64,000 bases of DNA. Source: Acidobacteriota bacterium (GTDB lineage: Bacteria > Acidobacteriota > UBA6911 > RPQK01 > JAJDTT01). Below are positions 1,859-58,133 of the stretch, one piece after another; positions within the stretch are counted from its first letter, which is position 1, and each line of letters starts with the position of its first letter. Under the pieces are notes generated by a model. That model had not been told where the DNA came from. It saw only the letters and a list, made by a program, of their open reading frames with translations, and searched no databases. Location of the stretch: positions 3,872,001 through 3,936,000 of the forward strand of contig OZ253580.1 of the NCBI GenBank assembly GCA_965263035.1. Direction: 5' to 3'. A program made the translations under genes and the position numbers.

Positions 1859-2512
1859 ATGAGACATCTTATCGGGATCGGCTTGACCGGGATTTTTCTT
1901 TCGGCGCTCCTGTTCGGTCCTGGCGCCTGGGCACAGTTGGCGAGCGACGACTCGGCCACGGGAGGCGTGGACTCGGCCACGGCGACGCTGGCTGGCGGAT
2001 GTTTCTGGTGCGTCGAGGCGGACCTGGAAAAGGTAGACGGCGTCAAGGAGGTGATCTCCGGCTACGCCGGCGGGGCTGAGGTGAATCCGACCTACAAGCA
2101 GGTCTCCGCCGGCAGGACCGGCCACGTCGAGGCGGTGCAGGCCATCTACGATCCCGCGCGCGTGACGTTCAGCCGGTTGCTGGAGGTGTTCTGGAAACAT
2201 GTCGATCCCACCGACGCCGGCGGCCAGTTCGTGGACCGGGGACCCCACTACCGGACGGTCATCTTCTACCAGGACCAGTTGCAACGGAAGCTGGCCGAGG
2301 AATCGAAGAAGCGACTGGAGGAATCCGGCGTGTTCGACGGGCCCATCGTGACCGAGATCCGGGAACTCAATCGATTCTACCGGGCCGAGGAGTATCATCA
2401 GGACTACTACAAGAAGAACTCCTTTCGTTACCGCTACTATCGTTGGAACTCGGGGCGGGATCAGTTCCTGGAACGGGTCTGGAAGGGACACCAGGCAAAA
2501 CTGTCCGAGTAG
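1859..2512 (+). CDS. msrA: Peptide-methionine (S)-S-oxide reductase MsrA, exported
   Basis: GGCFWC, TGHVE and AEEYHQDY motifs; N-terminal signal peptide; AGGAGG RBS upstream of ATG 1859. Confidence 0.93.
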   Translation: MRHLIGIGLTGIFLSALLFGPGAWAQLASDDSATGGVDSATATLAGGCFWCVEADLEKVDGVKEVISGYAGGAEVNPTYKQVSAGRTGHVEAVQAIYDPARVTFSRLLEVFWKHVDPTDAGGQFVDRGPHYRTVIFYQDQLQRKLAEESKKRLEESGVFDGPIVTEIRELNRFYRAEEYHQDYYKKNSFRYRYYRWNSGRDQFLERVWKGHQAKLSE

Positions 2513-2538
2513 GCGGATCGCCATTCTCCTTCCCTGAG

Positions 2539-3720
2539 ATGCGGTTCATCGACGGCATTCCGGTGTGGGGCGATCCCCAGGAGAACGCCGTTCTTCAGAT
2601 GAAGAATTGCGCCGGGGAGGCGGAGAGTTGCGCCCTGATGGCGGACCACCATCTGGGTTATGCCGTTCCCATCGGCGGAGTCGTCGCTTACCAGGGCCGC
2701 GTCAGCCCTTCGGGCGTCGGGTTCGACATCGCCTGCGGCAACAAGGCGGTCCGTCTCGACTGCGATCACGGGGACATCCGGAAGAACATCCCATCCATCA
2801 TGGATGAGATCTGGAAGTCCCTCTCCTTCGGTGTGGGCCGGGTCAACCGGAAGCCCGTCGACCACGACCTCTTCTACGACGATCCGGCCTGGAAGATTCC
2901 GGTGGCGGAGCGCCTGAAACCGGTCGCCAGAAAACAACTGGGCACCATCGGCAGCGGCAACCACTATGTCGACCTCTTCTCGGACGAGCAGGAGCGGATC
3001 TGGGCCGGAGTGCACTTCGGGTCCCGCGGTTTGGGCCACAAGCTGGCCACTTACTTCATCAAGGCCGGGGGCGGCAGGAACGGGATGCACGTGGACCCGG
3101 TGCTGCTGGACGTGGAGACCGAACTGGGGGCCGAATACGTGGCGTGCATGAAGCTGGCGGGCCGCTATGCCTACGCGGGACGGGATTGGGTCTGCGAAAC
3201 GGTCGCTGCCATTCTGGGAGCGGAGGTCCTGGAAGAAGTCCACAATCACCACAATTTCGCCTGGGAAGAAGAGCATGACGGCCGCCGGTTGTGGGTGGTG
3301 CGAAAGGGCGCCACGCCCGCCTTTCCCGGACAGAAAGGGTTCGTCGGGGGTTCCATGGGCGACCGCTCCGTGATCCTGGAAGGAGTCGACTCGAAAGAGA
3401 GCAAGAAAGCCCTCTATTCCACCGTCCACGGCGCCGGCCGGGTCATGTCCCGGACCCGTGCCGCCGGCAAGACCCGATTCAGGAAGGGGAAGCGGGTCCG
3501 CATCTCGGCGGGCGAAATCAGCCGGGACATGATGTTGGCTTGGATCCGCGGCATGGGAGTGGAGCTCCGCGGGGCCGGCCCCGACGAATCTCCCCACTGT
3601 TACAAACGGCTGCCCAATGTCCTGGAAGCGCACCGGGGCACCATCAGGATCCTGCACACGCTCGACCCCATCGGCGTGGCCATGGCCGCCGCGGGCGAGT
3701 TCGACCCCTACCGGGATTGA
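2539..3720 (+). CDS. rtcB: RtcB family RNA 3'-phosphate/5'-OH ligase
   Basis: GFDIACGN, GSGNHY, HFGSRG, HNHHN, RKGAT, HGAGRVMSR and DESPHCYK motifs. Confidence 0.93.
   Translation: MRFIDGIPVWGDPQENAVLQMKNCAGEAESCALMADHHLGYAVPIGGVVAYQGRVSPSGVGFDIACGNKAVRLDCDHGDIRKNIPSIMDEIWKSLSFGVGRVNRKPVDHDLFYDDPAWKIPVAERLKPVARKQLGTIGSGNHYVDLFSDEQERIWAGVHFGSRGLGHKLATYFIKAGGGRNGMHVDPVLLDVETELGAEYVACMKLAGRYAYAGRDWVCETVAAILGAEVLEEVHNHHNFAWEEEHDGRRLWVVRKGATPAFPGQKGFVGGSMGDRSVILEGVDSKESKKALYSTVHGAGRVMSRTRAAGKTRFRKGKRVRISAGEISRDMMLAWIRGMGVELRGAGPDESPHCYKRLPNVLEAHRGTIRILHTLDPIGVAMAAAGEFDPYRD
3562..3720 (+). repeat. Left copy of a 159-bp direct repeat (rtcB 3' end); putative attL
   Basis: Matches 15945-16103 with 11 mismatches by manual codon-wise comparison. 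Confidence 0.9.
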
Positions 3721-3869
3721 ATCGGCGGCTTCATCCGGGACGCCGTCTGCCGGACGTTCCGGTGGAACTCTCCCACCTTGTATTCTTCAGGCCGGGCCGC
3801 CATCGCCTACGCCCCATCCTGATCCGACGAGTTTCGAGACCGGCGTCGGACGACGTGTTACATTTGGGC

Positions 3870-4340
3870 ATGAAACACAGCGAGTTCATGAGCGTCATGT
3901 GGCGGGTGGCGGATCTGGTGCGGGACACCTTCAAGCGCGGTAATTACCTGAACGTCATCCTGGAGCTCACGGTTGTACTCCGTCGGCTCGAATGCGTGCT
4001 GGCTCGCACCAAGCCGAAGGTGTTGGCCGTCCACGCCAAGTACCGGGGCAGGATTGAGAACCTCCGGAGGCAGCTTCGGCGGGACTTGGTGTTCGGGTTC
4101 TACATCACGTCGCGCTACAACTTCGCGAAGCTCCTCGCCGACGCCCCCGAGATCGCTCAGAACCTGCGCCACTACATCGTCGGGTTCGGCGTTAACATGC
4201 GGGAGATGCCGGAGGAGTTCGACTTCGACGACACGGTCTTGAAGTTCGACGAGGCGGGTCTTCCGTTCCAAGTGGTGGAGTGGTTCGGCATTTCGAAGGT
4301 CTTGCCCCCTCCACTCCCGATCTCCAAGCCCACTTACTGA
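3870..4340 (+). pseudogene. hsdM: Truncated, degenerate N-terminal domain of a different type I R-M HsdM
   Basis: MKHSEFMSVMWRVADLVRDTFKRGNYLNVIL...LRRLECVLARTK...FYITSRYNF...NLRHYIVGF resembles HsdM_N; it ends before any methyltransferase motif. Confidence 0.75.
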
Positions 4341-4728
4341 TCCAGCCATGCCCCTCCGAAAATCCCACCTCTACTCCTCGCTCTGGCAGAGTTGCGACCA
4401 ACTGCGCGGCGGCATGGACGCGTCCCAGTACAAGGACTACGTCCTCACGCTGCTGTTCATGAAGTACGTCTCGGACAAGTACGCGGGGAAAGACGATCCC
4501 TATGCCGACATCAACGTGCCGCCCGGGGGAAGCTTCGCCGACATGGTGGCGCTGAAGGGAACCAAGGATATCGGCGATGGGATCAACGTAGCCATCCGCA
4601 AACTCGCTGACGCCAACGGCTATCTGCTTAAGGGCGTGATCGATCAGACCGACTTCCTCGACGAGAGCAAGCTCGGCAAGGGCAAGGAGATGCAGGAGCG
4701 CCTATCGAAGCTCGTGGGGATCTTCTAG

Positions 4729-6799
4729 CCCGAGTTTACCGTATTGGAGATCAGGATAAAGATAAGTTGTTTTTTTGCAAAGAGATAGGGCAGGTGTCCC
4801 GTATGACCTACGGAGCCGCATCAAGGGGTCGGATGGCGTGTTTTTCGAGTCCCAGGACTTCGTACATCGTGCGCTGTTCGTCCGTCATCTGCGAGAGCGT
4901 CGTCCGGAGTTCGGGCTCGCCGCCCTCCTCCCGCGCTGGATACAGCACGTCGACTTCGCGGATCCCGCTGAGCGCGTCCAGCAGCGCGGGGATCGAATCC
5001 TGCACGCCGTGGCGGCTCAGTTCCCGCTGCAGCAGGCCGCACAGCAGCAGCGCCAGCACGCAGCAGAACACATGCACCGCGATCTTCTGGTCCGTCCAGT
5101 GGTATTGTGGCCGGATGGCGATGCAGTTGCTGTCCTTGAGCTGCCGGAAGGCGCTCTCGACATGATGTTGCGCGCGGTAGCCGCGCACCAGCTCGGCGTC
5201 GCTCCAGCCCGCCTGGTCGGTGAACAGCAGGGTCTTGCCCAGTAACGTGCGCTGAAGCTGCTCCCAGGCGCGCCGCTGGAAGCGATAATTCACCTTCGGC
5301 AAGCCGTCCACCTCACGCACCTGAACGGCGAACAGGTCCCGCATGTGCCGGGCCCGCAGCCAGCCGTCGACCTTCTTGCGCGTGCCGGCCAGGCTCGGCT
5401 TGCGTCCCCCCCGGATCTTGCCCTCGCGCCAGCGCCGCAACTGCCACTGCAGGGCGCGCAGGTGCTGGCGCCGCTTAGCGATCTCGCGCAGCAGCGTCCG
5501 ACATTGGGCGTCGAACAGCGCTTGGTTCCAAGTCACCAGCACCGTGCGCTGGACGCCGAACACTTTGGACTCGGTGCGGTAGGAGCGCACGCCGGCCAGC
5601 CCGTCGGCCTCCAGCGAGCGCATCTGGTCCGCAGGCACGGCCAGCAGGTGCGGATGCTGGGTGGGGACCAGCGAGCCGATGAAGTGGAACGGGCTGCGCT
5701 CGACCCAGTCCAAGTTCGGGCGCGAGTTGTTGCCCTTGTCGAAGACCAGGGTGACCGTCTCGGTCCCGGCGGCGATCTCCCGGTAGCGCCGGGCCAAGTC
5801 GGCGGCGAGGCTTTGGAACGTTGGCGCGTCGGGGCGGTTGCCGGGATAGGTGCGATGCAGCAGGGGCAGGCGGAAGTCGGCCGTGACCAGCAGGGCCACG
5901 CCGATGATGCGCAACGACCTGCGGCCCTCCTTGCTGTGACCGCGCTGAGCCAGTTGGGAGCGCTGGTTGAAGGAATTGATGTAGGTAAAGAAGTGGGTGG
6001 CGTCAAACAGCACTTGGCCCAGGTCGAGGCGGAACTCGCGGGTCATGGCGGCAACGATGTCGCGTTCAATGGCGGGTAGGGCGGGGACGGGGACGCGGTG
6101 CATATGGTCCCAGAAGCGCTGGCTGGTGAGCTGGTTGGAGCGCAGGGGGAGCAGGCGGCGCAGGGCGGTGGAGTCGAACCAACGGGCGAGGCTGGCCTTG
6201 GAGCCGGGGGCGAGGCAGCGGTTGAGGACGGCGGCGAGCAAGTAGGTGCCGACGGAGGGACCGGAGCCGCGCTTCGGGAGATGGCGGTCGATGTGCTCGA
6301 CCAACTGCAAGCGGCGGGCGAGGGTAAGCAGGGCGGCCGAGGCCCCGAATTCGCGCACGACCGCCTCGAGCGGCTGGGCGGGGGCGGGGGCGGCGCGGAG
6401 CTTCTCGATGATCTTGTCGGCGCGACCGAGATAGGTCTGGGAGACGATCTTGGGTTTGCCGTCGACGCGCTTGCAGACGCGGGCGTAGTAGTAGGGGCGG
6501 CCCCGGATGATCTTCTTGACGAGGCTGGCCATATATTTAGGTCATACAATAGCGTATGGATCCGACCGATGTCAAGCGAGTTATCCGTAAAAACTTCATT
6601 TATAGATGGAATAATAGTTCTGGAGAAGACCTGACAAATCCCACCATATATTAGGCCATACAAAAATCAATGGGACGAGAGCAAGGGCCTCGGCCGGGCT
6701 GGGTGATAAACCCTTCCTTATCAATAACTTGAATCTGAATCGTCGGTCTGCCCACGCGCTAGGGCAATGCTATGCTGGTGCGAACACGGTAAAGTCGAG
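4729..6799 (-). mobile_element. IS1634-family insertion sequence, 2071 bp, CTAG target duplication
   Basis: Imperfect terminal IRs CCCGAGTTTACCGTATT / AACACGGTAAAGTCGAG; CTAG at 4725-4728 and 6800-6803. Confidence 0.88.
4808..6532 (-). CDS. IS1634-family DDE transposase
   Basis: 574 aa; LFDATHFFTY, GHSKEGR, VFDKGNNS, YRAQHHVESAFRQLK and RPQYHWTDQKI motifs. Confidence 0.88.
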   Translation of the reverse strand: MASLVKKIIRGRPYYYARVCKRVDGKPKIVSQTYLGRADKIIEKLRAAPAPAQPLEAVVREFGASAALLTLARRLQLVEHIDRHLPKRGSGPSVGTYLLAAVLNRCLAPGSKASLARWFDSTALRRLLPLRSNQLTSQRFWDHMHRVPVPALPAIERDIVAAMTREFRLDLGQVLFDATHFFTYINSFNQRSQLAQRGHSKEGRRSLRIIGVALLVTADFRLPLLHRTYPGNRPDAPTFQSLAADLARRYREIAAGTETVTLVFDKGNNSRPNLDWVERSPFHFIGSLVPTQHPHLLAVPADQMRSLEADGLAGVRSYRTESKVFGVQRTVLVTWNQALFDAQCRTLLREIAKRRQHLRALQWQLRRWREGKIRGGRKPSLAGTRKKVDGWLRARHMRDLFAVQVREVDGLPKVNYRFQRRAWEQLQRTLLGKTLLFTDQAGWSDAELVRGYRAQHHVESAFRQLKDSNCIAIRPQYHWTDQKIAVHVFCCVLALLLCGLLQRELSRHGVQDSIPALLDALSGIREVDVLYPAREEGGEPELRTTLSQMTDEQRTMYEVLGLEKHAIRPLDAAP

Positions 6800-8839
6800 C
6801 TAGGGGCTCGATTTTCGCGCCAACCGTGCCCACGGCGACGACCTCCTTGGCGACGCGTATGAGTATCTCATGCGGCACTTCGCGACCCAGTCGGGCAAGA
6901 GCAAGGGACAGTTCTACACCCCGGCTGAAGTCTCCCGCATCATGGCCCAGGTGATCGGGATCGGCCCGGACACCAAGCGGCGCCACACCGTGTACGATCC
7001 GACCTGCGGCTCCGGGTCGCTCCTCATCAAGGCGGCCGACGAGGCGTCGAACGGGCTGACCATCTACGGGCAGGAGATGGACGTCGCGACGTGGATGATG
7101 GCGCGCATTAACATGATCCTTCACGGACGCGTGGCCGCCGAGATCAAACGCGACAACACCCTCGCGGCCCCCCAATTTACGGACGGCCCGGAACGGCTCA
7201 CGCGGTTCGACTTCGCCGTCGCCAATCCCCCGTTCTCAATGAAGGCCTGGTCGAACGGCCTCGATCCGGCCCATGACGAATTCCGCCGCTTCGAGTACGG
7301 CGTCCCTCCGGCCAAGAACGGAGACTATGCCTTCCTGCTGCACCTCATCGCGTCGCTCAACAGCACCGGCAAGGGTGCAATCATCATGCCGCACGGGATC
7401 CTCTTCCGGGGCAACCGCGAGGCCGGCATCCGCCGCAATCTCGTCCAGCGCGGCCTGATCAAGGGAATCATCGGGCTGCCCGCCAACCTCTTCTACGGTA
7501 CCGGAATCCCGGCGTGCATCGTGGTGATCGACAAGGAGAGTGCGGTGGGGCGCCGCGGCATCTTCATGATCGACGCCAGCAAGGCCTTCCGGAAGGACGG
7601 AGCCAGGAACCGGCTTCGGGAACGCGACATTCACCGGATCGTGGATGTCTTCAACGGACAGAAGGAGACACTCGGATACGCGCGTATGGTGCCGCTGGCC
7701 GAGATCGCCAGCGAAGTCAACGACTACAACCTCAACATCCCCCGCTACATCGACTCCAGCGAACCCGAGGAGCTGCACGACCTGAGCGCGCACCTGCACG
7801 GTGGGATCCCGAACCGGGATATCTACGCCCTTGGCGCCTACTGGAAGGTGTTCCCGGCGTTGCGGCATCGGCTCTTCTCGCCGAACGGCCGGGAGGGGTA
7901 CAGCGACGCGCAGGTTCAAGCGGACGAGGTGAGATCAGTCGTCCTCGAACACGAGGAGTTCAAGGTATATGGGGACCGGGTGAGCCGGGTGTTTGATGGC
8001 TGGAGGCAGGAGCATGCGCCGCGCCTTCGGGCGCTTGCGGAAGGCGATTCCCCCAAGGCGCTGATCCGCGACCTATCGGAGGACCTGCTGAGCCGCTTCG
8101 CCGGTCTCCCGCTTCTCGACCGCTACGATGTCTACCAGTGCCTGATGGACTACTGGGACGAGGTCATACAGGACGACGTGTACTTGGTGGTGACGGGGGA
8201 GTGGGCGGACGCCGCGCGGCCTCGTGTGCTGGTGCCGGTTCGGGGCAAGGGTGCCGCGGTGCCGCCCGACCTGAAGGTGAACCGCAAGAAGTACAGGATG
8301 GATCTAGTCCCTCCAGGGCTGGTCGTCGCCCGGCACTTTGCAACGGAGCAGGCCGTCGCCCGGGAGCTGGAGGAGTTTATCGAAGAACATGGCAGTGAAG
8401 ACGGGCTGCTGGACGGCGCGACGACCGATGCTGGGAAGGTGACGCAAGCCGCGGTGAAGAAGCGGCTGAAGGAGGTGGTCGACGATCCTGAAGATCACGA
8501 GGAGCGTGACGCGTTGGAAGTGTGTCTTGAGTTGATCAAGGCGCACGGCGCCTCAAAGAAGGCCGTGAAGGCGGCGCAGACGAATCTGGATGAGAAGGTG
8601 CTCACGCGCTACACGACGCTGACCGCGGTGGAGATCGCCGAGCTCGTGGTTGACGACAAGTGGATAGCGAGCGTCGAGGGCGCGATCGGACGGGAGGTGG
8701 AACGCCTGACGGGTGGGCTGGTGGATCGGGTCAGGGTGCTGGAAAGGCGGTACGCGAAGCCGCTGCCTGAGCTTGCGCGTCAAGTTGGGGAGTTCGGTGC
8801 GAAGGTCGAGGGCCACCTGGAGCGGATGGGATTGTCGGT

Positions 8840-9154
8840 ATGAGCCGGCTATTCGATTTTGAGCGGCTGGTGGAGCTGTGTCATGAGCGCCTCCTCTCCA
8901 AAGTCTCAGTACGGACGATTTCCGCAAATCTGTTGCGGATTTCCAGCAACCGGTCGATTCCGCAGACGGTGTCTGCGGAATCCCGTGAGGCGTCAGAGAT
9001 TCGACAGACGATGCCCGTCGAAACTCTTTCGCCAAGCCCGATGAGTGAGGCACCCAGTCTACTGAAGTTGAGCGAGCAGTTTCTCAAGGAAGGAACGTGT
9101 TCAAACCGCGAGGGTCCGCCAGGAGATCGGAAGAGGCGAGAGGGACACCCATGA
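8840..9154 (+). pseudogene. Possible remnant of a YhcG/DUF1016-type gene
   Basis: Coupled to the hsdM stop. MSRLFDFERLVELCH and the IPQTVSAES/IRQTMPVE segments resemble the variable linker of YhcG-like proteins; no nuclease domain. Confidence 0.35.
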
Positions 9155-10431
9155 ATGTGGGGCAGGCGGTCAGAGATGCCCATGCACCGGAGGGTGCAGG
9201 CAACCCGCCGGATGTCCCGGCGGGGTACAAGCACACTGATGTGGGGGTGATTCCAGAGGATTGGGAGGTGGACAGAATCGATCAACATACGTTCATCAAG
9301 ACTGGCTCAAGGAATACGCAAGACAAGCGAGAGGGTGGAGAGTATCCGTTCTTTGTGCGATCTCAGGAAGTCGAGCGCATCGGCACCTATTCGTACGATG
9401 GCGAAGCCGTGCTGACGGCGGGTGATGGAGTCGGAACCGGAAAGGTGTTCCACTACGTCCGTGGCCGGTTTGACGTCTATCAACGGGTCTATCGGATTTC
9501 CGATTTTTCGGATTGGCTCGATGGGCTCTACTTCTTTTTCCAGTTCAGTGAGAGGTTTTACCGCCGCATCATGTCCATGACAGCGAAGTCTTCCGTCGAT
9601 TCCGTTCGGATGGAGATGATCGCGGGTATGAGGATTCCACTGCCGCCACCCTCCGAACAGCGCGCCATCGCCGCCGTCCTATCCGATGTTGACGAGCTGA
9701 TCGGATCGTTGGAAGCGCTGATCGCCAAGAAGCGGGCCACCAAGAAGGCCGCGATGCAGCAACTTCTGACGGGCAGGACGCGACTCCCGGGATTCAGCGG
9801 GAAATATGAGGCGCGACGGATCAACGAACTCGCTGACGTGGATCCCGAGAATCTACCCAGCGATACAGACCCAGGTTTCTTCTTCAACTACATTTCGCTG
9901 GATCACGTCGATGGTGGTCGACTAATTGGCTATTCAAGGGAGTCATTCGCGACCGCCCCGTCGCGCGCACGACGGGTACTGCGGGCCAGTGATGTACTTA
10001 TGTCAACAGTCCGGCCAGGTTTGCAGGGACACCTGATATTTGTCGACCAAGTGCCCAACGCCGTTTGCTCGACTGGGTTTGCAGTCCTTCGTTCAAAGCG
10101 AGACCGATGCGACCCTCGGTTCTTGTTTGCCCATTTGTTTGGCGATGTAGTGAGCGCTCAAGTGCAGAAGCTCCTTGCTGGCTCGAACTACCCCGCGGTC
10201 AACAGCGGTGATGTTGGCAGGCTTAGGGTCCCCTGTCCTCCTACTCTCCCCGAACAACGAGCCATCGCCACCGTCCTCTTCGACATGGACGCCGAGATCG
10301 TCGCGCTGGAGCGCCGACTCGACAAGACCCGCGCGATCAAGCAGGGGATGATGCAGCAGTTACTCACCGGTTCCATGAGGCTGCCCATCCCCGACGCCAA
10401 TACGGAAGACGACGACGCCCATGACGCCTGA
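9151..10431 (+). CDS. hsdS: Type I R-M specificity subunit HsdS
   Basis: GYKHTDVGVIPEDW start; two TRDs, each followed by PxxxEQRAIA...D...LE..I.K...KxxMMQQLLTG conserved helices. Confidence 0.93.
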   Translation: MNVGQAVRDAHAPEGAGNPPDVPAGYKHTDVGVIPEDWEVDRIDQHTFIKTGSRNTQDKREGGEYPFFVRSQEVERIGTYSYDGEAVLTAGDGVGTGKVFHYVRGRFDVYQRVYRISDFSDWLDGLYFFFQFSERFYRRIMSMTAKSSVDSVRMEMIAGMRIPLPPPSEQRAIAAVLSDVDELIGSLEALIAKKRATKKAAMQQLLTGRTRLPGFSGKYEARRINELADVDPENLPSDTDPGFFFNYISLDHVDGGRLIGYSRESFATAPSRARRVLRASDVLMSTVRPGLQGHLIFVDQVPNAVCSTGFAVLRSKRDRCDPRFLFAHLFGDVVSAQVQKLLAGSNYPAVNSGDVGRLRVPCPPTLPEQRAIATVLFDMDAEIVALERRLDKTRAIKQGMMQQLLTGSMRLPIPDANTEDDDAHDA

Positions 10432-49516: not shown

Positions 49517-51104
49517 CTATTCGAGAGCGGCCTCCTTGGCATGGGTGTAAAGCACCTTGCCCTTCTCGTCGAAGAAGGCAAAATCCATTCGAGCCCGCCC
49601 CTCGCCGGTCTGGCCGATCTTCAGGAGCAGGAAACCGCCGGTGGGTTCTTGGTAGTGGTAGAGATGTTTCACTTTTCCCTCGGGATCCGATGAAGTGGCG
49701 TCGCCCGGAAAGTGCCCCAGAATCGCGTTGGCATCCACCAGCGCGCCGACGGAGAACTCCTGGAATCCGGACGGGTGGACGGCATGATACTGCCAGTGCC
49801 GGTCCCCGCAGACGATCATGAACCGGTCCGGAGAGAATTCTTTGGCCGTCAGCCAGCGGAAGAACTCGTCTCCTTCATGTTGGAATCCCCCCGGGTTGAC
49901 GTGGTTGTCGCGCTTGAAGGCGTAGTCGGGTCCCACCAGCGGGGTCGGGGAAAGGAGGACTTTGAAGGTGGCGTCGCTCTCCAGCAGGGTTCGTTTGAGC
50001 CACCCCTTCTGCTCCTTCCCCCAGATCGTCTTCCGGGGTCCGTCGGGAAAGTCGTTGGGGCTGCGGTAGTCGCGTCCCTCCACGATCCAGATCTGCAGAT
50101 TCCGGTTTCACTCTTCGCGTGGAGTAGGTCACCGTGTCTGAGGCCCGTGGATCGACGACGGGAAACTGTTCTCGGAACATCCGCACCCCCAGTTCATGGG
50201 AGGGAGCATGGCCGGAACCGGAGTGCTTCGGGTAGAGGTTCTCCTTGGGATAGGTTCCGGTATCCGACCCGTCATAGATTTGGATGCGGACCGGATTGAA
50301 CGGATCGGAGTCGTTGAACCGGTAGTCGTGATCGTCCTTCATCCAGTAGGTTCCCACTCGGGCGAACAGGTCCAGGAACCTCTGCTGCGAGAACTGCTCC
50401 TGGTGCTTCATCCGCAGTTGGTGCTGCGTCTCCGCCCGTCCTCTCATATCTTGGTCGGCTCCCGGGACGTCGTAATAGACGTTGTCTCCCAAACCCACGA
50501 AGAAGTCGGGCTCCAAGGCCAGGATGGATGCCAGCCCCGGGTAGCCGAGCTCCTTGTCCGGTCCACTGTAGGGTGGTTGGGAACCGTGCCCCGAGTAGTG
50601 GAAGAAGCTGTAGTTCATGCAGGTGGCGACCGCAAAGCTGTAGGAGACCTGACCCGTGCGTCCGCCCAAGGTGGTGAAAGAGGCCGACGGGGATTTCTTG
50701 AACCGTGACTTGTCCGGTCCGTAGACCAGGCGAAAGTGGTAGCGGGTCTCCGGCCGCAGCCCTTCCACCTTGATCTTCACGATGTAGTCGTTCTCCGGAA
50801 GGGCGGCCAGCCATGCGGTCCGGATCGAGTTCTTGAAATCGGCCCCGGCCGCCACCTCGAAGCGGGCAATGCCCCCGATTCCCAGGACGCCCGACCAGCG
50901 GGGGTCGACGAGGCGCTCGGTCGAGGTGAGGCGGGACTGGAGAATCGCCGTCGTGTCATCCACGGCGCCCACCATCAGGCCATGGCCCAGCTCCATGGGA
51001 AAGGGGTCCCCGGACTGGGCAAAGCTCCAGTTCCCCAGCGTCAGGAACAGAGCCACTGCGGAGATTCGGACCCAACCGGTCTGGCGGGTGATTCTGGTGG
51101 TCAT
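49517..51104 (-). pseudogene. PhoD family protein, copy 2, +1 frameshift near 50106
   Basis: GTGAAACCGGAATCTG versus GTGAACCGGGACCTC in copy 1 (one extra A); both halves otherwise intact. Confidence 0.8.
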
Positions 51105-51460
51105 GACCTCCTCCAAGTCCCGGCATCATAACCGATTTGGGGTGTCTGGGAGGGGCGACTTTCTTGTCGCCCACTGGATCGGGTCGGGCGCAGGGGATTG
51201 CGCCCCTGCACCCTCCCACACCACCGGACGTACCGTTTTCAGTATCCGGCGGTTGGAGTCACCCGAGGCTCTTTCGAGCCTCGTACAGGGCCTTTCTTTC
51301 CGGTTTCCGCCGCCGCTGAGACTTGATCTCCGCCCTTCCGGCTTGCCGGGCTCCACCCGTGGGCCTTCCATGCCGGGTCCGAGGGGCCTCCCCCCGCCCC
51401 GTTTTCGGAGGTATTTGCGATCCCGCTGACGAGTCCACCATAGGGCCCGTCCGACTCCTT

Positions 51461-53242
51461 TGGAGTTGACCCGCTTTCGTGGACACATCCAAAGTAGGGG
51501 AGTAAGGAGGGATCCACGATGGCAAGAAAGCAGAGACGGTATCCGCCGGAGTTCCGGCGGGAGATCGTAGGGCTGGTGCGCTCGGGGCGATCGCCGGAGG
51601 CACTGGCGCGGGAGTTCGAGCCCTCGGCTTCGGCGATCCGGAAGTGGGTCAAGCAGGCCGATCTGGACGAGGGGCACCGGAGCGACGGGTTGACGAAGTT
51701 CGAGCGCCAGGAGTTGCGTCAGGCGAGGCGGGAGATCAAGCGCCTGCGGATGGAGCGGGACATCCTAAAAAAAGCCGCGGCTTGGTTCGCCCGGGAGAGC
51801 GACTCGATCCCAGGAAAGGATTCGAGTTCGTAAAGGCGCACCGGGCCCAGTTTCCGATTCGGGTGATGTGCCGCGTGTTGGGTCTCTCCCCCAGTGGGTA
51901 CTACGCCTGGTTGAAACGTCTGCCCTCGAACCGGGCTCGCCAGGACCAGGCGCTTCGGGAAAAGATCGTGCAGATCTGGAACGAGAACCGGAGAGTTTAC
52001 GGTCGGCCTCGTCTGCATGCCGAACTGAGAGCTCGAGGGGAACGGACGAGCCCGAAGCGTGTGGGCCGATTGATGCGGGAAGCGGGAATTCAGGGGGTGA
52101 GCCGGAGGCACCGGAAGGCCGGGCTCACCCGGAGGGACCGGAAGGCGCGTCCCGCACCGGACCTGGTGAACCGGAACTTCGCGGCTGAGGGACCGGATCA
52201 GCTCTGGGTGGCGGACCTGACGTATGTTCGCACGCAGGCGGGCTGGTTGTATGTGGCCGTGGTCCTGGACGCCTGGAGCCGAATGGTCGTGGGCTGGGCA
52301 ATGGAGACCCATCTGCGGTCCGAACTGGTCGAGAATGCGCTCGCCATGGCGGTGATACGGCGACAGCCGAAGCAGGTGATCCACCACTCGGACCAGGGGG
52401 CACAATACACCTCGACGGCCTTCGGGAAGAGATGCCGGGAGGCCGGGGTGCGGCCGTCGATGGGCTCGGTGGGGGACGCTTACGACAACGCGATGTGCGA
52501 GAGCTTCTTCGCGACGCTGGAATGCGAGTTGCTGGACCGTCACCAGTTCCGGAATCCGAATCAGGCGAGGCGGACCGTCTTCGACTTCATTGAGGGATTC
52601 TACAACCGGCGCCGCCGACACTCGGCGCTGGGCTACGAGTCGCCGGTCCGCTACGAGCAGCAGGCAGCGTAGGACCCACGGCGTCGTCGAAACTCGATCC
52701 GGACGACGAGATCCTCGATTCGTGCTCTCGCCGAGTGCAGTGATGACCTGCTGGGGTCGTCTTTCCTGCCTCCAATGCCGGTCCTGCGGGCCGGGAGGCT
52801 CAGAAGGACTGACGCCGCCTCACGAACCGGTTCGTTTTCGCGCTGCTCGACCACGAAGCCAGCACCATCACCGTCGCACCAAGCGTCGCGCGCGACACGA
52901 TTGAAGAGGGCAGGGGGGCGCTGCCCCCCTGAGACCCCCGGATGCAAAGAGATACACACCACTCTTAAATCCCTGGAAAGAAAGCGCCGAGGCCCCCTCG
53001 TTACGCGGTATCCCATTGTGGAAAATCAGAGATTTCCCACAACGTGAGCCCTTTTGCTGACGCCTCCATCAGTCCCCCCACAGAAGAAAGAACGCTCTGT
53101 CAATGGTCAAAACCCTGACATTTTCTATGGCCATTGACATTCAGCGGGAGGAAGTCTTGCTCCCCAACGACAGAAGGAGTATTACAACCTAGACCAACGT
53201 AAACCGCACTAATAAACCGTCCACGAAAACGGGACACCTTCA
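51461..53242 (+). mobile_element. IS3-family element, 1782 bp, 3-bp CTT target duplication
   Basis: IRs TGGAGTTGACCCGCTTTCGTGGAC / GTCCACGAAAACGGGACACCTTCA; CTT on both flanks. Confidence 0.92.
51519..52672 (+). CDS. IS3 transposase OrfA/OrfB with -1 frameshift at A7G (51767-51774)
   Basis: OrfA HTH plus leucine zipper; OrfB WVADLTY, HSDQGAQY and DNAMCESFF. Confidence 0.93.
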
Positions 53243-53814
53243 CTTCGGTCCTTCGCTCCACCGGCATTATCCGGCTTCTTCGCTACTATGACCTCTGCTG
53301 ACTTCTCAAAGGCTCTCACCCTTGAGATCTCCCCGAGTAAGGTGCTGCATCTTTCCCCCCGGGCCGCCCGGCTCTACCTGGTACGTCTGGATGGGGTTCG
53401 GGTTTCGCTGTTGCTCGCCAGCTCACCGCCCGCACCCGGCCTCGCTGCCGGTTCGTGTTCCTGCGGTCGTGGGTTTGCCTTCCGCTTCCTTCAGCTTCAC
53501 CTCGCGGCTACGCCTTGCGGTTCGGCTAGGGTTGGTCCCATCACCTCCCTTGGGATCTTTCATCCCTTAGATACAGCCCATGTCGGGCGCACGAGCGGCG
53601 ACTTTCTTGTCGCCGATTGGGACAGGCGACTTTCTTGTCGCCTGCTCTTCCGTGTTGCTGTGCGAATCGGTGGTGGGAAAGTGTAGAGGTGGGACTCCGT
53701 CCCCCCTACCCCCCCCTGTTCGGCGACAAGAAAGTCGCCGCTCCAGAATTGCTATACTCGCTGGCCGAATCGATTCAAGACTCTGAACGCCGCCCGTCGA
53801 CGGAGGGCGAACGC

Positions 53815-55703: not shown

Positions 55704-58133
55704 ATGCGTCTGAAAAACGACGGAAAGAATGGAACCCGGCAGCAGGATTTCATTCAGTCGTTCCGCCTCCGGTACGCCGGTTTCTGTCTCGTGGTTCTGG
55801 CGTGGGCGGCCTGCTACTCGCCGTTGTTAAGTGGCCTGTGGGTGGTCCCCTATGATGCCCTGGCTCAGAATTTTCCCGCCGCGGCATTCTCCGCGACCGC
55901 GATTCAGCAAGGCGATTCGCCCTTCTGGAACCCATACCTGTTCAGCGGTCATCCCGCCCTGTCCGACCCCCAAATGTTCCTGTTCTCTCCCTTGCTGATG
56001 CCCTTGATGGTTCTGGGGAACCCTCATGACATCCACTGGTTCACCTTGGTCGTAGCGCTCCACGTACTTTTGGGCGGGCTTGGCTTCTACGTCTTGCTCC
56101 GGCGTGCGGACGTGGCGCTTTTCCCGGCGGTGCTGGGTGCCGTTGTCTTCATGTTTGGCGGGTACGCTCTGACGCGGTTGCAGCATACGACCATGATCTT
56201 GAGCTACGGATATTTTCCGTGGGCGCTGGTGCTATTGCGGCAGTTGTTGAGCTCTCCCCGTGTCGGAGTTGCGGTGGGTTGTGGCGTAGTCGCCGGGGGC
56301 ATGGCGATACACGGCAATCAGGTGGCGTACTTGCTTTCATTGGTTCTGGTCGGCGTCGCAGTGGCAGCGTTCTTCAAGGCGCCGGACAAGGTCGTATTTC
56401 TGCGCCGGAAGCTGCCCTGGCTGGCCGCCGGCGGGATCGTCGGATTCCTGGTACTGCTGCCTCAGCTCTACGGCATCTTTCTGTTCCTGGACGAGAGCAA
56501 CCGTCCCCATTTCGAGTACGCGTTCGCCGCCCGGCAATCCATGTGGCCTCATATTCCGGCAACGCTGCTGGTGCCCGACCTGTTCGGCGCTCTCGGCGAC
56601 AACTATGTCGGGCCCGATGACCGGACGGAGTCGTTGTTGTACGTCGGTGGCCTCGGTGTCTGGGTGCTGGCGTTCTGGGGCCTGTGGCACGGATATCTTT
56701 GGCGGCGCCGCAACCTGTTCTTCCTCGGAATCCTGTTTTTTTCGCTGCTGTACATGCTTGGCGACCTGACGCCGGCCTATCGTCTTTTCTACGAAGTCAT
56801 CCCCGGCGTCGCTCTCTTTCAGCGCCCACTGGACGGCGGTTTTCTGCTCAATATCGGCTTGGCGGGCCTGGTCGCCCTGGTGTTGGACGAAGTCTTGGGA
56901 AGAGATCCGGGGAAGCTTCCGACCCGCCGGATGCGAGTCGCAGGAAGAGTCTGCCTGGTGCTCCTGGGCACGGTATTCTCATTTGCCGTATGGAAGGGCG
57001 TGACTCTGCACCAGGATTGGCGGCCGGCGATCCAGGCCTTCGGTCCCGCCTCGGCTTGGATCTTCGCATCCGCGTTGGCTCTGTTTCTGCTACTGCGTTA
57101 CGAACGTCTGCGATGGCCGTTGTCCCTGGTCCTCACGGCCCTTCTGGTGGCCAACCTGGGATGGGTGAACCTGAACCGCAGGATCAATCTGGTCCGGACC
57201 AGCGACGTCAGCCATCCCGGTGGGTTGCCGAAGTTCCATCGGCAAATCCTGGAGTTCATTCGCGAAAACACGGCGGCCGGCGAGACTGGCGCTCCACCTC
57301 GCCGTGTCGATCTGATCTACGCTGGGGCACAACTTTCGAATTTGCCCAATCTCTATCCGTTTCACTCCATTTCGGGTGCCAATCCGCTTGTATCCGGCCG
57401 CTATCAGATGTTTGCCGGGAAACGAAACGTCTACTCCGGACCGCCCCTGTTCTCACCCATGATGCCCGGCTACTCATCGGGAGCATTGGATTGCCTGGAT
57501 GTGAAATTCGTGATCACGGCTCTGGACCTGGAGCAGTACGATTCCACTTACGATGCCGACGAATTGCCGTTGGTCACCCGCTTCGCGAACATCTCGGTCT
57601 ACGAAAACCCGGACGTGCTGCCGCGGGTGCGCCTTTTGAACCGGTTCCAGGTTGCCGGCAACAGGGAGCAAGCGGCGGAACTGCTGGCCAGTCCTTCTTT
57701 TTCTCATCACGGCAATGCCGTAGTCGAATTGCGGGAAGGGTGGACGCCCGAATTGGAAGAAGTATTCCGGGTGGGTGGAGCCGACCGTTTCGCCGCCGGC
57801 TCGAGTTTCGAGATTTCAACCGAACCGAGCGGCCGTGACCGAGTCCGGATCGTCCGTTACGAAAACGACCGGGTGGATGTAGTTGCCGAAAGCGACCATC
57901 CGCGCCTGCTCGTCCTGGCAGACGTGCTCACCGAAGGATGGAAGGCCTATCTGGGCGAAAAGGAACTGCCCATCCACTACGCCAACTATGCGTTTCGAGG
58001 AGTGTTTCTGCCTCCTGGACACAACCAGGTCAGCTTTCGCTTCCGGCCTTTCGACGCCGATGTCGCCCGCAACGTCCTGCGGAGGGTCTTCTCGGTCCGC
58101 GATGAAAATCCGGTGCCGATTCGATATCGGTAA
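55704..58133 (+). CDS. YfhO-family multi-pass membrane protein (GT-C-like)
   Basis: PFWNPYLFSGHP, many TM helices, C-terminal GWKAY...ANYAFRGV.LPPGH. Confidence 0.85.
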   Translation: MRLKNDGKNGTRQQDFIQSFRLRYAGFCLVVLAWAACYSPLLSGLWVVPYDALAQNFPAAAFSATAIQQGDSPFWNPYLFSGHPALSDPQMFLFSPLLMPLMVLGNPHDIHWFTLVVALHVLLGGLGFYVLLRRADVALFPAVLGAVVFMFGGYALTRLQHTTMILSYGYFPWALVLLRQLLSSPRVGVAVGCGVVAGGMAIHGNQVAYLLSLVLVGVAVAAFFKAPDKVVFLRRKLPWLAAGGIVGFLVLLPQLYGIFLFLDESNRPHFEYAFAARQSMWPHIPATLLVPDLFGALGDNYVGPDDRTESLLYVGGLGVWVLAFWGLWHGYLWRRRNLFFLGILFFSLLYMLGDLTPAYRLFYEVIPGVALFQRPLDGGFLLNIGLAGLVALVLDEVLGRDPGKLPTRRMRVAGRVCLVLLGTVFSFAVWKGVTLHQDWRPAIQAFGPASAWIFASALALFLLLRYERLRWPLSLVLTALLVANLGWVNLNRRINLVRTSDVSHPGGLPKFHRQILEFIRENTAAGETGAPPRRVDLIYAGAQLSNLPNLYPFHSISGANPLVSGRYQMFAGKRNVYSGPPLFSPMMPGYSSGALDCLDVKFVITALDLEQYDSTYDADELPLVTRFANISVYENPDVLPRVRLLNRFQVAGNREQAAELLASPSFSHHGNAVVELREGWTPELEEVFRVGGADRFAAGSSFEISTEPSGRDRVRIVRYENDRVDVVAESDHPRLLVLADVLTEGWKAYLGEKELPIHYANYAFRGVFLPPGHNQVSFRFRPFDADVARNVLRRVFSVRDENPVPIRYR

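Follow-up and report, generated by a model that had tools for sequence, protein, structure and literature searches.

Introduction

Group II introns without an open reading frame (ORF) are rare in bacteria and usually reside beside related introns that encode an intron-encoded protein (IEP), according to Zimmerly and Semper (2015; PMC4424553). In the account of Mohr, Ghanem and Lambowitz (2010; PMC2882425), the ORF-less TeI3 introns of Thermosynechococcus elongatus are mobilised by the 'driver' IEPs of TeI4 introns, and 17 ORF-less copies with one breakpoint are moved in trans. Introns of group IIC are described as inserting at terminators or attC sites (PMC4424553), and for a group II intron of Pseudomonas putida KT2440 two of the nine copies were reported to be associated with repetitive extragenic palindromes (REPs) (Tobes and Pareja 2006; PMC1525189). 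The way in which a DNA stem-loop is recognised by IIC introns remains little understood. Here we describe a group II intron on the minus strand of a 64,000-nt stretch of DNA (the window) from an Acidobacteriota bacterium (assembly GCA_965263035.1, contig OZ253580.1, positions 3,872,001-3,936,000). It is very probably a copy, interrupted by an insertion sequence (IS), of a non-autonomous class C (IIC) intron that homes behind REP-like hairpins. The whole genome (G000; one contig, 6,198,070 bp, 62% GC) was searched for further copies by blastn, and the family is termed family A.

The closest precedent is the Thermosynechococcus ORF-less introns. As far as that report describes them (PMC2882425), TeI3 and family A both comprise many ORF-less copies with one breakpoint that outnumber the ORF-containing relatives in the genome, and both show good pairing of exon-binding and intron-binding sites (EBS and IBS) at each site, mostly intergenic locations and retargeting by EBS changes. 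In family A the breakpoint is shared by copies at different loci, and a relative with an intact IEP is present in the same genome. However, TeI3 is of IIB type, its IEP diagram lists an En domain and its targets are long sequences, whereas family A is a IIC intron with an En-less IEP that uses a hairpin and 4+1 bases. The sites of family A are derived from a REP-like repeat, and its ratio of ORF-less to full-length copies is 22 to 2. Mobilisation in trans was demonstrated by experiment for TeI3 (PMC2882425); for family A we infer it, as the first-pass annotation of the window had done in reading the intron as a non-autonomous element served by a reverse transcriptase (RT) from elsewhere.

With the terminator- and attC-homing IIC introns, as reviewed (PMC4424553), family A shares a compact ribozyme, an IEP without an endonuclease domain, insertion 3' of a stem-loop, a short IBS1 plus IBS3 and a one-strand replication bias. 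Unlike them, it uses stem-loops that are sequence-defined, genus-specific repeats without a U-tract, and nearly all of its copies are ORF-less. These introns have reportedly been studied by Robart (2007), Leon and Roy (2009) and Mohr (2018). The P. putida genome and the present one are alike in that REPs serve as landing sites for mobile elements, in the terms of that report (PMC1525189). In family A, however, 17 of the 24 copies stand at an exact REP and 6 more at variant hairpins, the pairing rule is defined, and the loop of this REP also receives a second intron family, inserted on the opposite strand. The repeats themselves resemble the REP/BIME and REPIN-RAYT systems of Proteobacteria, as far as the accounts of these extend, in being short GC-rich palindromes of more than 100 copies, mostly extragenic, regularly spaced and lineage-specific; they differ in their 18-nt units, their 28-nt period and the lack of a clear RAYT partner. 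Our literature search found no report of REP-directed IIC homing or of a proliferated ORF-less IIC family, although an earlier description may exist. The feature is real, and the first-pass annotation interpreted it correctly in its essentials.

Overall organization of the intron

The intron occupies 51178..53592 on the minus strand (window positions, unless given as genome positions) and spans 2415 nt including the IS. Its 5' end is the G at 53592 (GTGCGCCCGAC..., starting GTGCG) and its 3' end is the T at 51178 (...CCCGAT). Three Rfam pieces confirm a group II intron: the domain I core at 53344..53511 (minus strand; group-II-D1D4-3, RF02001; 81.4 bits, E 1.1e-14, full model 1-170), the region of domains II-III at 53248..53341 (minus strand; group-II-D1D4-1, RF01998; 47.2 bits, E 2.2e-5), and domains V and VI at 51178..51254 (minus strand; Intron_gpII, RF00029; E 1.7e-4, full model), the last scoring 40.4 bits at a gathering score of 40. 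The same three matches were obtained in an intact ORF-less copy and in a full-length copy of family A, and RF00029 matches 23 of the 24 family A copies. Both ends and domains V and VI had thus been recognised correctly from the letters alone, and the predicted length of about 630 nt after removal of the IS proved exact, as subtraction of the IS and one copy of its target duplication leaves 630 nt. The annotated range of 51149-53744 does contain the intron but also takes in the flanking hairpins. The first 350 nt are 100% identical to ten other genomic copies. What remains of domain IV in the ORF-less form lies at 51255..51457 (minus strand), as delimited by alignment of the ORF-less and full-length forms. 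It consists of a 5' segment in common with the full-length intron and a hairpin, GAGGCTC-GAAA-GAGCCTC, in the place of the ORF; an RT is absent from domain IV of the window copy, as first stated.

The IS lies at 51461..53242 (plus strand), antisense to the intron at the base of domain IV after intron nt 350, and is 1782 bp long with TG..CA ends. Its overlapping frames orfA (51519-51833; HTH_Tnp_1, 2.1e-10) and orfB (51644-52672; rve, 2.8e-25) place it in the IS3 family; about 570 nt of non-coding tail follow orfB. The IS is flanked by a 3-nt target duplication, CTT, at 51458-51460 and 53243-53245. Its ends were set by comparison of the nine full copies in the genome, which have common ends TGGAGTT...CCTTCA and 3-nt duplications. 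Two of the nine are inside family A introns, at intron nt 350 and at about 265-275, and no common target was found in the flanks of the nine copies. After the IS hit, the window copy is probably no longer a competent donor.

Target site and EBS1

The 5' exon ends with GGCGAC-AAGAAA-GTCGCC-GCTC (53614..53593) and the 3' exon begins with CCAG, exactly as the first-pass annotation had them. The target hairpin at 53597..53614 (minus strand) is a member of a REP-like family of 170 copies and stands immediately upstream of the IBS1, GCTC, at 53593..53596 (minus strand), that is, where IBS2 would be; the IBS3 is the C at 51177..51177 (minus strand). The congeneric genome G010 holds the orthologous locus without the intron: the exact empty site reads ...GCCGCC-GCTC/CCAATG, and the locus as a whole reads REP-CATTGG/GAGC-REP-GATTGGGACA-REP, an uninterrupted target base for base. 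Therefore, the insertion in the window is exact, and the claim that precise removal of the intron restores a REP unit is borne out. In G013 the corresponding locus is without that REP unit, and a family B intron (see below) is in the next REP.

The same arrangement was found in every one of the 24 family A copies. GCTC directly precedes the intron in all 24, C directly follows it in 23 and T in one, and a hairpin adjoins the GCTC in all of them, 20 hairpins being perfect with at least 6 bp and four having one mismatch. A perfect hairpin of at least 6 bp adjoins 20 of the 24 occupied sites versus 267 of 26,037 (1.0%) empty GCTCC sites, which is an association far beyond chance. The hairpin conforms to the exact pattern GGCGRC-AAGAAA-GYCGCC at 17 of the 24 sites. 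In five others the stems differ but the loops are similarly A-rich; a sixth variant (genome 2489581) is a mismatched copy of the repeat. Across the occupied sites the stems vary by compensatory changes (GGCGAC, GGCGGC, GGGGGT, GGGGAC, GGCCATC). The copy at 436,835 (genome 436206-436835, minus strand) stands behind an unrelated hairpin, GGCCATC...GATGGCC followed by GCTC/C, within a gene of the Zn-dependent alcohol dehydrogenase family (ADH_N, 5.4e-28; ADH_zinc_N, 6.8e-19). It lies antisense in this gene and splits 293 codons from the last 47. A sense-strand genic intron was considered for this copy and rejected, as the long frame over the joined exons is the antisense of the dehydrogenase gene. 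Since variant hairpins and the dehydrogenase gene are used, recognition is by structure and 4+1 bases and not by the REP sequence as such, and insertion is not harmless at every site. This corrects the view of REP hairpins as neutral landing sites, as a site need be neither neutral nor a REP.

The EBS1 was identified by alignment of domain I from ten introns of five genomes (two from G000, two from G009, one from G012, four from G014 and one from G008). The four introns that follow GCTC (G000 and G009) have GAGC at intron nt 177-180, and the six that follow CCTC (G012, G014 and G008) have GAGG, a change of C180 to G. Three more G008 copies also follow CCTC, but contig ends cut them before nt 180. 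The EBS1 5'-GAGC-3' of the window copy thus lies at 53413..53416 (minus strand), where it pairs with the IBS1 GCUC, in the 8-nt terminal loop of a domain I hairpin (GCGAGCAA); the position of the loop was taken from the Rfam alignment. A different GAGC, at 53371..53374 (minus strand; intron nt 219-222), had been put forward as a candidate EBS1. It is present but invariant in all ten aligned introns whatever their IBS1, and was rejected. Both EBS1 states occur in both sequence clusters (in the GTGCG type, G000 versus G014; in the GTGTG type, G009 versus G012 and G008), so that the switch occurred at least twice. The idea that EBS1 tracks the commonest REP tail was not supported, as the G014 intron reads CCTC yet G014 has 62 REP sites followed by GCTC.

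The absence of a U-tract, which had been noted for these hairpins, was seen here as well but is not special by itself. An IEP scan gave 80 class C loci, the best being 72% identical and from an Acidobacteriota metagenome-assembled genome. After 19 had been dropped for little upstream DNA or partial matches, 61 were screened with a simple pattern, which found a plausible 5' end in 22. In GC-rich hosts, class C introns follow a GC-rich hairpin and then GCCA, GCTA, CCTA or CCTC, and those of Alicyclobacillus and Niallia have T-rich tails upstream. Class C introns of GC-rich genomes thus commonly target hairpins that have no U-tract.

The REP-like hairpin family

The exact pattern GGCGRC-AAGAAA-GYCGCC occurs 170 times in the genome (92 on the plus and 78 on the minus strand), in 101 clusters with arrays of up to four. 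The unit is 18 nt and the period 28 nt, with 35 neighbour pairs at the 28-nt spacing. The tail is GCTC in 92 copies (75 empty GCTCC sites and 17 occupied ones), CCTCC in 32 and TGTCC in 15. A crude gene model based on ORFs and GC3 (3725 genes covering 77% of the genome) places 140 of the 170 copies in intergenic DNA. The family is accordingly a short palindrome with many copies, mostly extragenic, clustered and lineage-specific, as REPs are.

The pattern is found in 15-202 copies in seven of eight congeners, and in none of six sister-genus genomes; the reversed control gave zero everywhere. Three of the congeners have REPs but no match to intron A (G010 with 202 copies, G013 with 109 and G011 with 61). 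Because it is present in these intron-free genomes, the genus-specific REP family is independent of the intron. The expectation that the hairpins form a dispersed repeat family was therefore correct. No clear RAYT partner for the REPs was found in the genome, where two weak Y1_Tnp-like frames (39 and 36 bits) were the only matches; about 800 nt to one side of one frame lie two REPs, and the other frame has none within 1.5 kb. In G010, up to ten REP hairpins stand in strict 28-nt period at C15:19534-19803, with A/T and G/C stem variants mostly alternating.

Family A copies, the parent IEP and loss of the ORF

A search for further copies and for an RT-encoding parent with the same ends had been proposed, and both were found. 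The 24 copies comprise 22 ORF-less and two full-length introns. Nineteen ORF-less copies are intact at 630-632 nt and three are interrupted, two by the same IS at different positions and the third by a 4.7-kb insert that replaces nt 121-264. This insert (genome 5180577-5185272) shows a weak Bac_DnaA-type (IstB-like) match at 5180883-5181170. The two full-length copies, 1848 nt each, share 99.7% identity; their ORF is open and includes YADD. Their IEP, 409 aa from the ATG, is identical and intact in both and contains RVT_1 (2.3e-38) and GIIM only, with TIGR04416 at 363 bits. Its closest solved relative is the GsI-IIC RT (6ar1; E 1.6e-133, residues 1-394 of 409); there is nothing beyond the aligned part and no room for an endonuclease domain. 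The ribozyme is compact, 630 nt in total with a domain IV of about 190 nt. Class C ribozymes without domain IV are about 400-450 nt long, and we take that of family A to resemble the Oceanobacillus IIC ribozyme closely. Family A was assigned to group IIC (class C) because of its IEP, compact ribozyme and target type.

In the ORF-less form, GAGGCTC-GAAA-GAGCCTC takes the place of the stretch that begins with the start codon and reaches to the last few codons. This single deletion junction was found in all 19 intact ORF-less copies, and the three interrupted copies are consistent with it. At unlinked loci, five ORF-less copies are identical over 630 nt and ten differ by at most 4 nt; the oldest copy differs by up to 33 nt. 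Given the shared deletion and the near-identical copies at different loci, the ORF-less form spread after the loss of the ORF, and a single deletion with continued spread from then on, including a recent burst, would explain this most simply. Across the genus the junctions differ. The ORF-less copy of G014 is a clean internal deletion of the genome's own full-length intron, G008 has another junction, and G000 and G012 share a third lineage. On this evidence the genus has seen at least three losses of the ORF.

Two stray fragments of family A were also noticed in the genome, a 35-codon piece of the IEP C-terminus at 1998661-1998765 (minus strand; 77% identical, one TGA) and 51 nt of the intron 5' end at 56917-56967 (minus strand).

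Replication strand bias

Cumulative GC skew is lowest at 2.875 Mb, with dnaA at 2,872,067, and has a flat maximum near 5.8 Mb (5.5 to 6.2 Mb), so that the terminus is loosely placed. In 20 of the 24 family A copies the sense strand is the leading strand, i.e. the lagging-strand template was entered (binomial p 0.0015). Occupancy of the exact-pattern REPs followed by GCTC showed the same bias, with 14 of 33 lead-oriented sites occupied versus 3 of 59 lag-oriented ones (Fisher p 2e-5). Insertion thus favours the lagging-strand template, and Okazaki fragments may prime the cDNA synthesis. The window copy is one of the four exceptions in the disfavoured orientation. A REP hairpin followed by GCTCC at 53722..53744 (plus strand), one of the 75 empty sites, offers a target in the favoured, leading-strand orientation only 130 nt from it.

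Proposed mechanism and alternative explanations

Based on these results, we propose how family A would move. The 630-nt RNA retains domains I to VI, domain IV being reduced to its 5' part with a short GAAA-capped hairpin instead of the RT/maturase ORF, and the IEP would most likely be provided in trans by the two full-length copies. The resulting ribonucleoprotein may reverse-splice into single-stranded DNA immediately 3' of a stem-loop, reading four bases through EBS1-IBS1 pairing (GAGC with GCUC) and one further base, C, as IBS3. Most sites are provided by the genus-specific REP-like hairpin, with a GCTCC-tailed subset of about 90 sites, and the lagging-strand template is preferred, as expected if Okazaki fragments prime the cDNA. 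The window copy lies in a divergent promoter region in the disfavoured orientation, and the IS3-family element arrived later.

Several points weigh against this proposal. The Rfam models name no intron class, so that the assignment to IIC was derived from the kind of IEP, the compactness of the ribozyme and the type of target. The gene context was taken from the crude gene model, the covariation of EBS1 depends on one base position, and the flat terminus makes the orientation of three family A copies uncertain (37528, 88695 and 6060612). In addition, the ORF-less form of G000 and the resident full-length copies agree at only about 77% of positions over about 90 nt of domain IV, whereas domains I-III are at least 98% identical. 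Because of this difference the ORF-less lineage is not simply derived from the resident parent, and its putative IEP-binding site may no longer fit the resident IEP; the pattern suggests recombination or template switching between lineages. Several sequencing runs contain 83-84% of the words of the locus. RNA data were examined by comparing metatranscriptome contigs (runs X1-X3, with X15 for comparison) with 20 kb around one full-length copy. At this locus no exon-exon joint was seen in the RNA-library contigs, and the libraries may hold DNA. Nearly the whole 20 kb was covered by such contigs, so that DNA carry-over is possible. The RT ORF is matched by contigs that differ from it at 0-3 positions, and the ORF-less form is represented by its domain IV sequence on a loose end at locus position 9896. 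A single joint touches the border of the intron (2052 to 10336, side 24), and it belongs to the repeat-driven type. The word depth of domain I was much higher in the RNA libraries than in X15, but it is unusable as a measure of expression.

The hairpins might instead be primarily working terminators or stabilisers of mRNA 3' ends without U-tracts, with family A an ordinary terminator-homing IIC intron and the repeat family incidental. The upstream gene is co-oriented in 12 of the 24 copies (among them the ORF-less ones at genome 4,022,903, 4,244,064, 4,669,978 and 4,838,477), the downstream gene converges in 16, often ending 1-50 nt from the site, and class C introns of other GC-rich bacteria also stand behind a GC-rich hairpin and 3-4 nt without T-runs (the 22 of 61 loci with a findable 5' end). 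However, the common stem and loop sequence (170 exact copies, 35 pairs at 28 nt, arrays that reach 4 units in this genome and 10 in G010) indicates a propagated repeat rather than independently evolved terminators, and the window copy and 11 others are not behind a co-oriented gene. We consider this explanation unlikely as a replacement for REP-directed homing, although it overlaps with the latter rather than excluding it.

That the ORF-less copies are immobile decay products, inserted as full-length introns and then altered by gene conversion that copied one deletion, seems highly improbable. It would require 22 conversions with only two copies left unconverted, and five copies at unlinked loci do not differ at any of the 630 nt. 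The copies do look mosaic, the 5' part of the window copy being that of the young subfamily and its 3' part resembling older copies, and the near-identity of domains I-III between the two forms, but not of domain IV, also points to recombination or template switching; yet the ORF-less forms with other breakpoints in G014 and G008 show that deletion derivatives arise and persist, and experiments reported for Thermosynechococcus show that ORF-less copies with a shared breakpoint are mobile (PMC2882425). Least credible is a spread of the ORF-less copies as DNA, through REP/REPIN transposition (Y1, RAYT-like) or recombination between REPs, for which one could cite the two Y1_Tnp-like frames, one of them about 800 nt from two REP hairpins, and the REPs that flank many copies. 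The junctions are base-exact at GCTC|C in all 24 copies, with differing stems and 3' flanks, and neither duplicated REP halves nor target duplications of the transposase type were present in any of the 24. Moreover, one copy is at a non-REP hairpin in a gene, EBS1 covaries with the exon, the empty site of G010 has the REP without the intron, and the occupancy bias for one replication strand fits an RNA-based insertion.

With REP-directed homing of an ORF-less IIC intron as the preferred explanation, the 24 insertions provide a natural series in which the stems vary, the 4+1-base code is fixed, about 75 sites are empty and a clear replication-strand rule applies, so that the rules of recognition are directly testable. 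Retroelements are added to the known uses of REP repeats. The genus also offers a bacterial model for the passage from an autonomous retroelement to protein-dependent introns served by a common factor, because one of its intron families lost the ORF at least three times independently, ORF-less copies outnumber autonomous ones by 22 to 2, and a second family is ORF-less as well.

Other group II introns in the genome

The genome contains 35 matches to RF00029, of which 23 belong to family A, seven to family B and four to a third family, with one singleton. Family B is ORF-less and 642 nt long, and its seven copies match group-II-D1D4-6 (RF02005) at 155-166 bits. They are located at genome positions 2436403-2437044(-), 3066875-3067516(+), 6114886-6115527(-), 2482159-2482801(-), 3351629-3352271(+), 3743283-3743925(+) and 680748-681390(-). 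Six of the seven are within the REP loop on the opposite strand (GGAGSGGCRRCT / intron / TTCTTGTCGCC, or close variants of the 3' exon), and all seven are lead-oriented. Full-length relatives exist in G009, G011 and G013. The G000 copies contain IEP remnants of 55-57 codons, and no cognate RT was found in this genome, where the best matches to the G009 parent IEP are only 35-37% identical. Two of the copies are nevertheless 100% identical, with a third slightly lower (1154 versus 1159 bits). With near-identical copies but no cognate RT in the genome, family B might be moved by a non-cognate driver IEP of another class, and the REP hairpin family might be a shared safe harbour for two unrelated ORF-less introns; we regard this idea as tentative and rather doubtful. 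Family A would then enter behind the hairpin on one strand and family B in the loop on the other, both on the lagging-strand template. At genome 3066875-3070027, a family B copy lies 110 nt upstream of an IS-bearing family A copy, so that three mobile elements stand in one REP cluster.

The singleton is a domain V/VI match at genome 340877-340952 (minus strand), which at 52 bits has the highest score of all 35; a scan of its 3.2-kb locus gave no domain I-IV match, and neither genome-wide RT search had a match nearby. The introns of the third family are about 1970 nt long, match Rfam D1D4-4 at 92 bits and carry an RT 36% identical to the IIC IEP. Copies are at genome 5841468-5843436(+), 5536884-5538851(+), 983531-985500(-) and 5052870-5057068(+, interrupted), and one of them ends about 160 nt ahead of the start of an Rfam large-subunit (LSU) rRNA match.

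Genomic setting of the window copy

In the window, the intron and IS occupy a divergent spacer that in G010 measures only about 330 nt. On one side is the gene 49875-51104 (minus strand), secreted metallophosphatase-like, whose start codon is 73 nt from the 3' splice site on the same strand as the intron; on the other is an SDR-type gene from 53815 onward (plus strand). The target hairpin belongs to a cluster of REPs. A neighbour in the 3' exon (51154..51171, minus strand), followed by CCTC, is 28 nt from it after removal of the intron, and a third hairpin (53625..53642, minus strand), followed by TGTC, stands 28 nt upstream of it. At 53691-53705 lies a second small hairpin, GGGGAC-TCC-GTCCCC, which occurs at 24 other places in the genome and is followed by a C-rich run, often about 20 nt before a REP hairpin. 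This arrangement suggests that the two hairpins are parts of a larger composite repeat unit.

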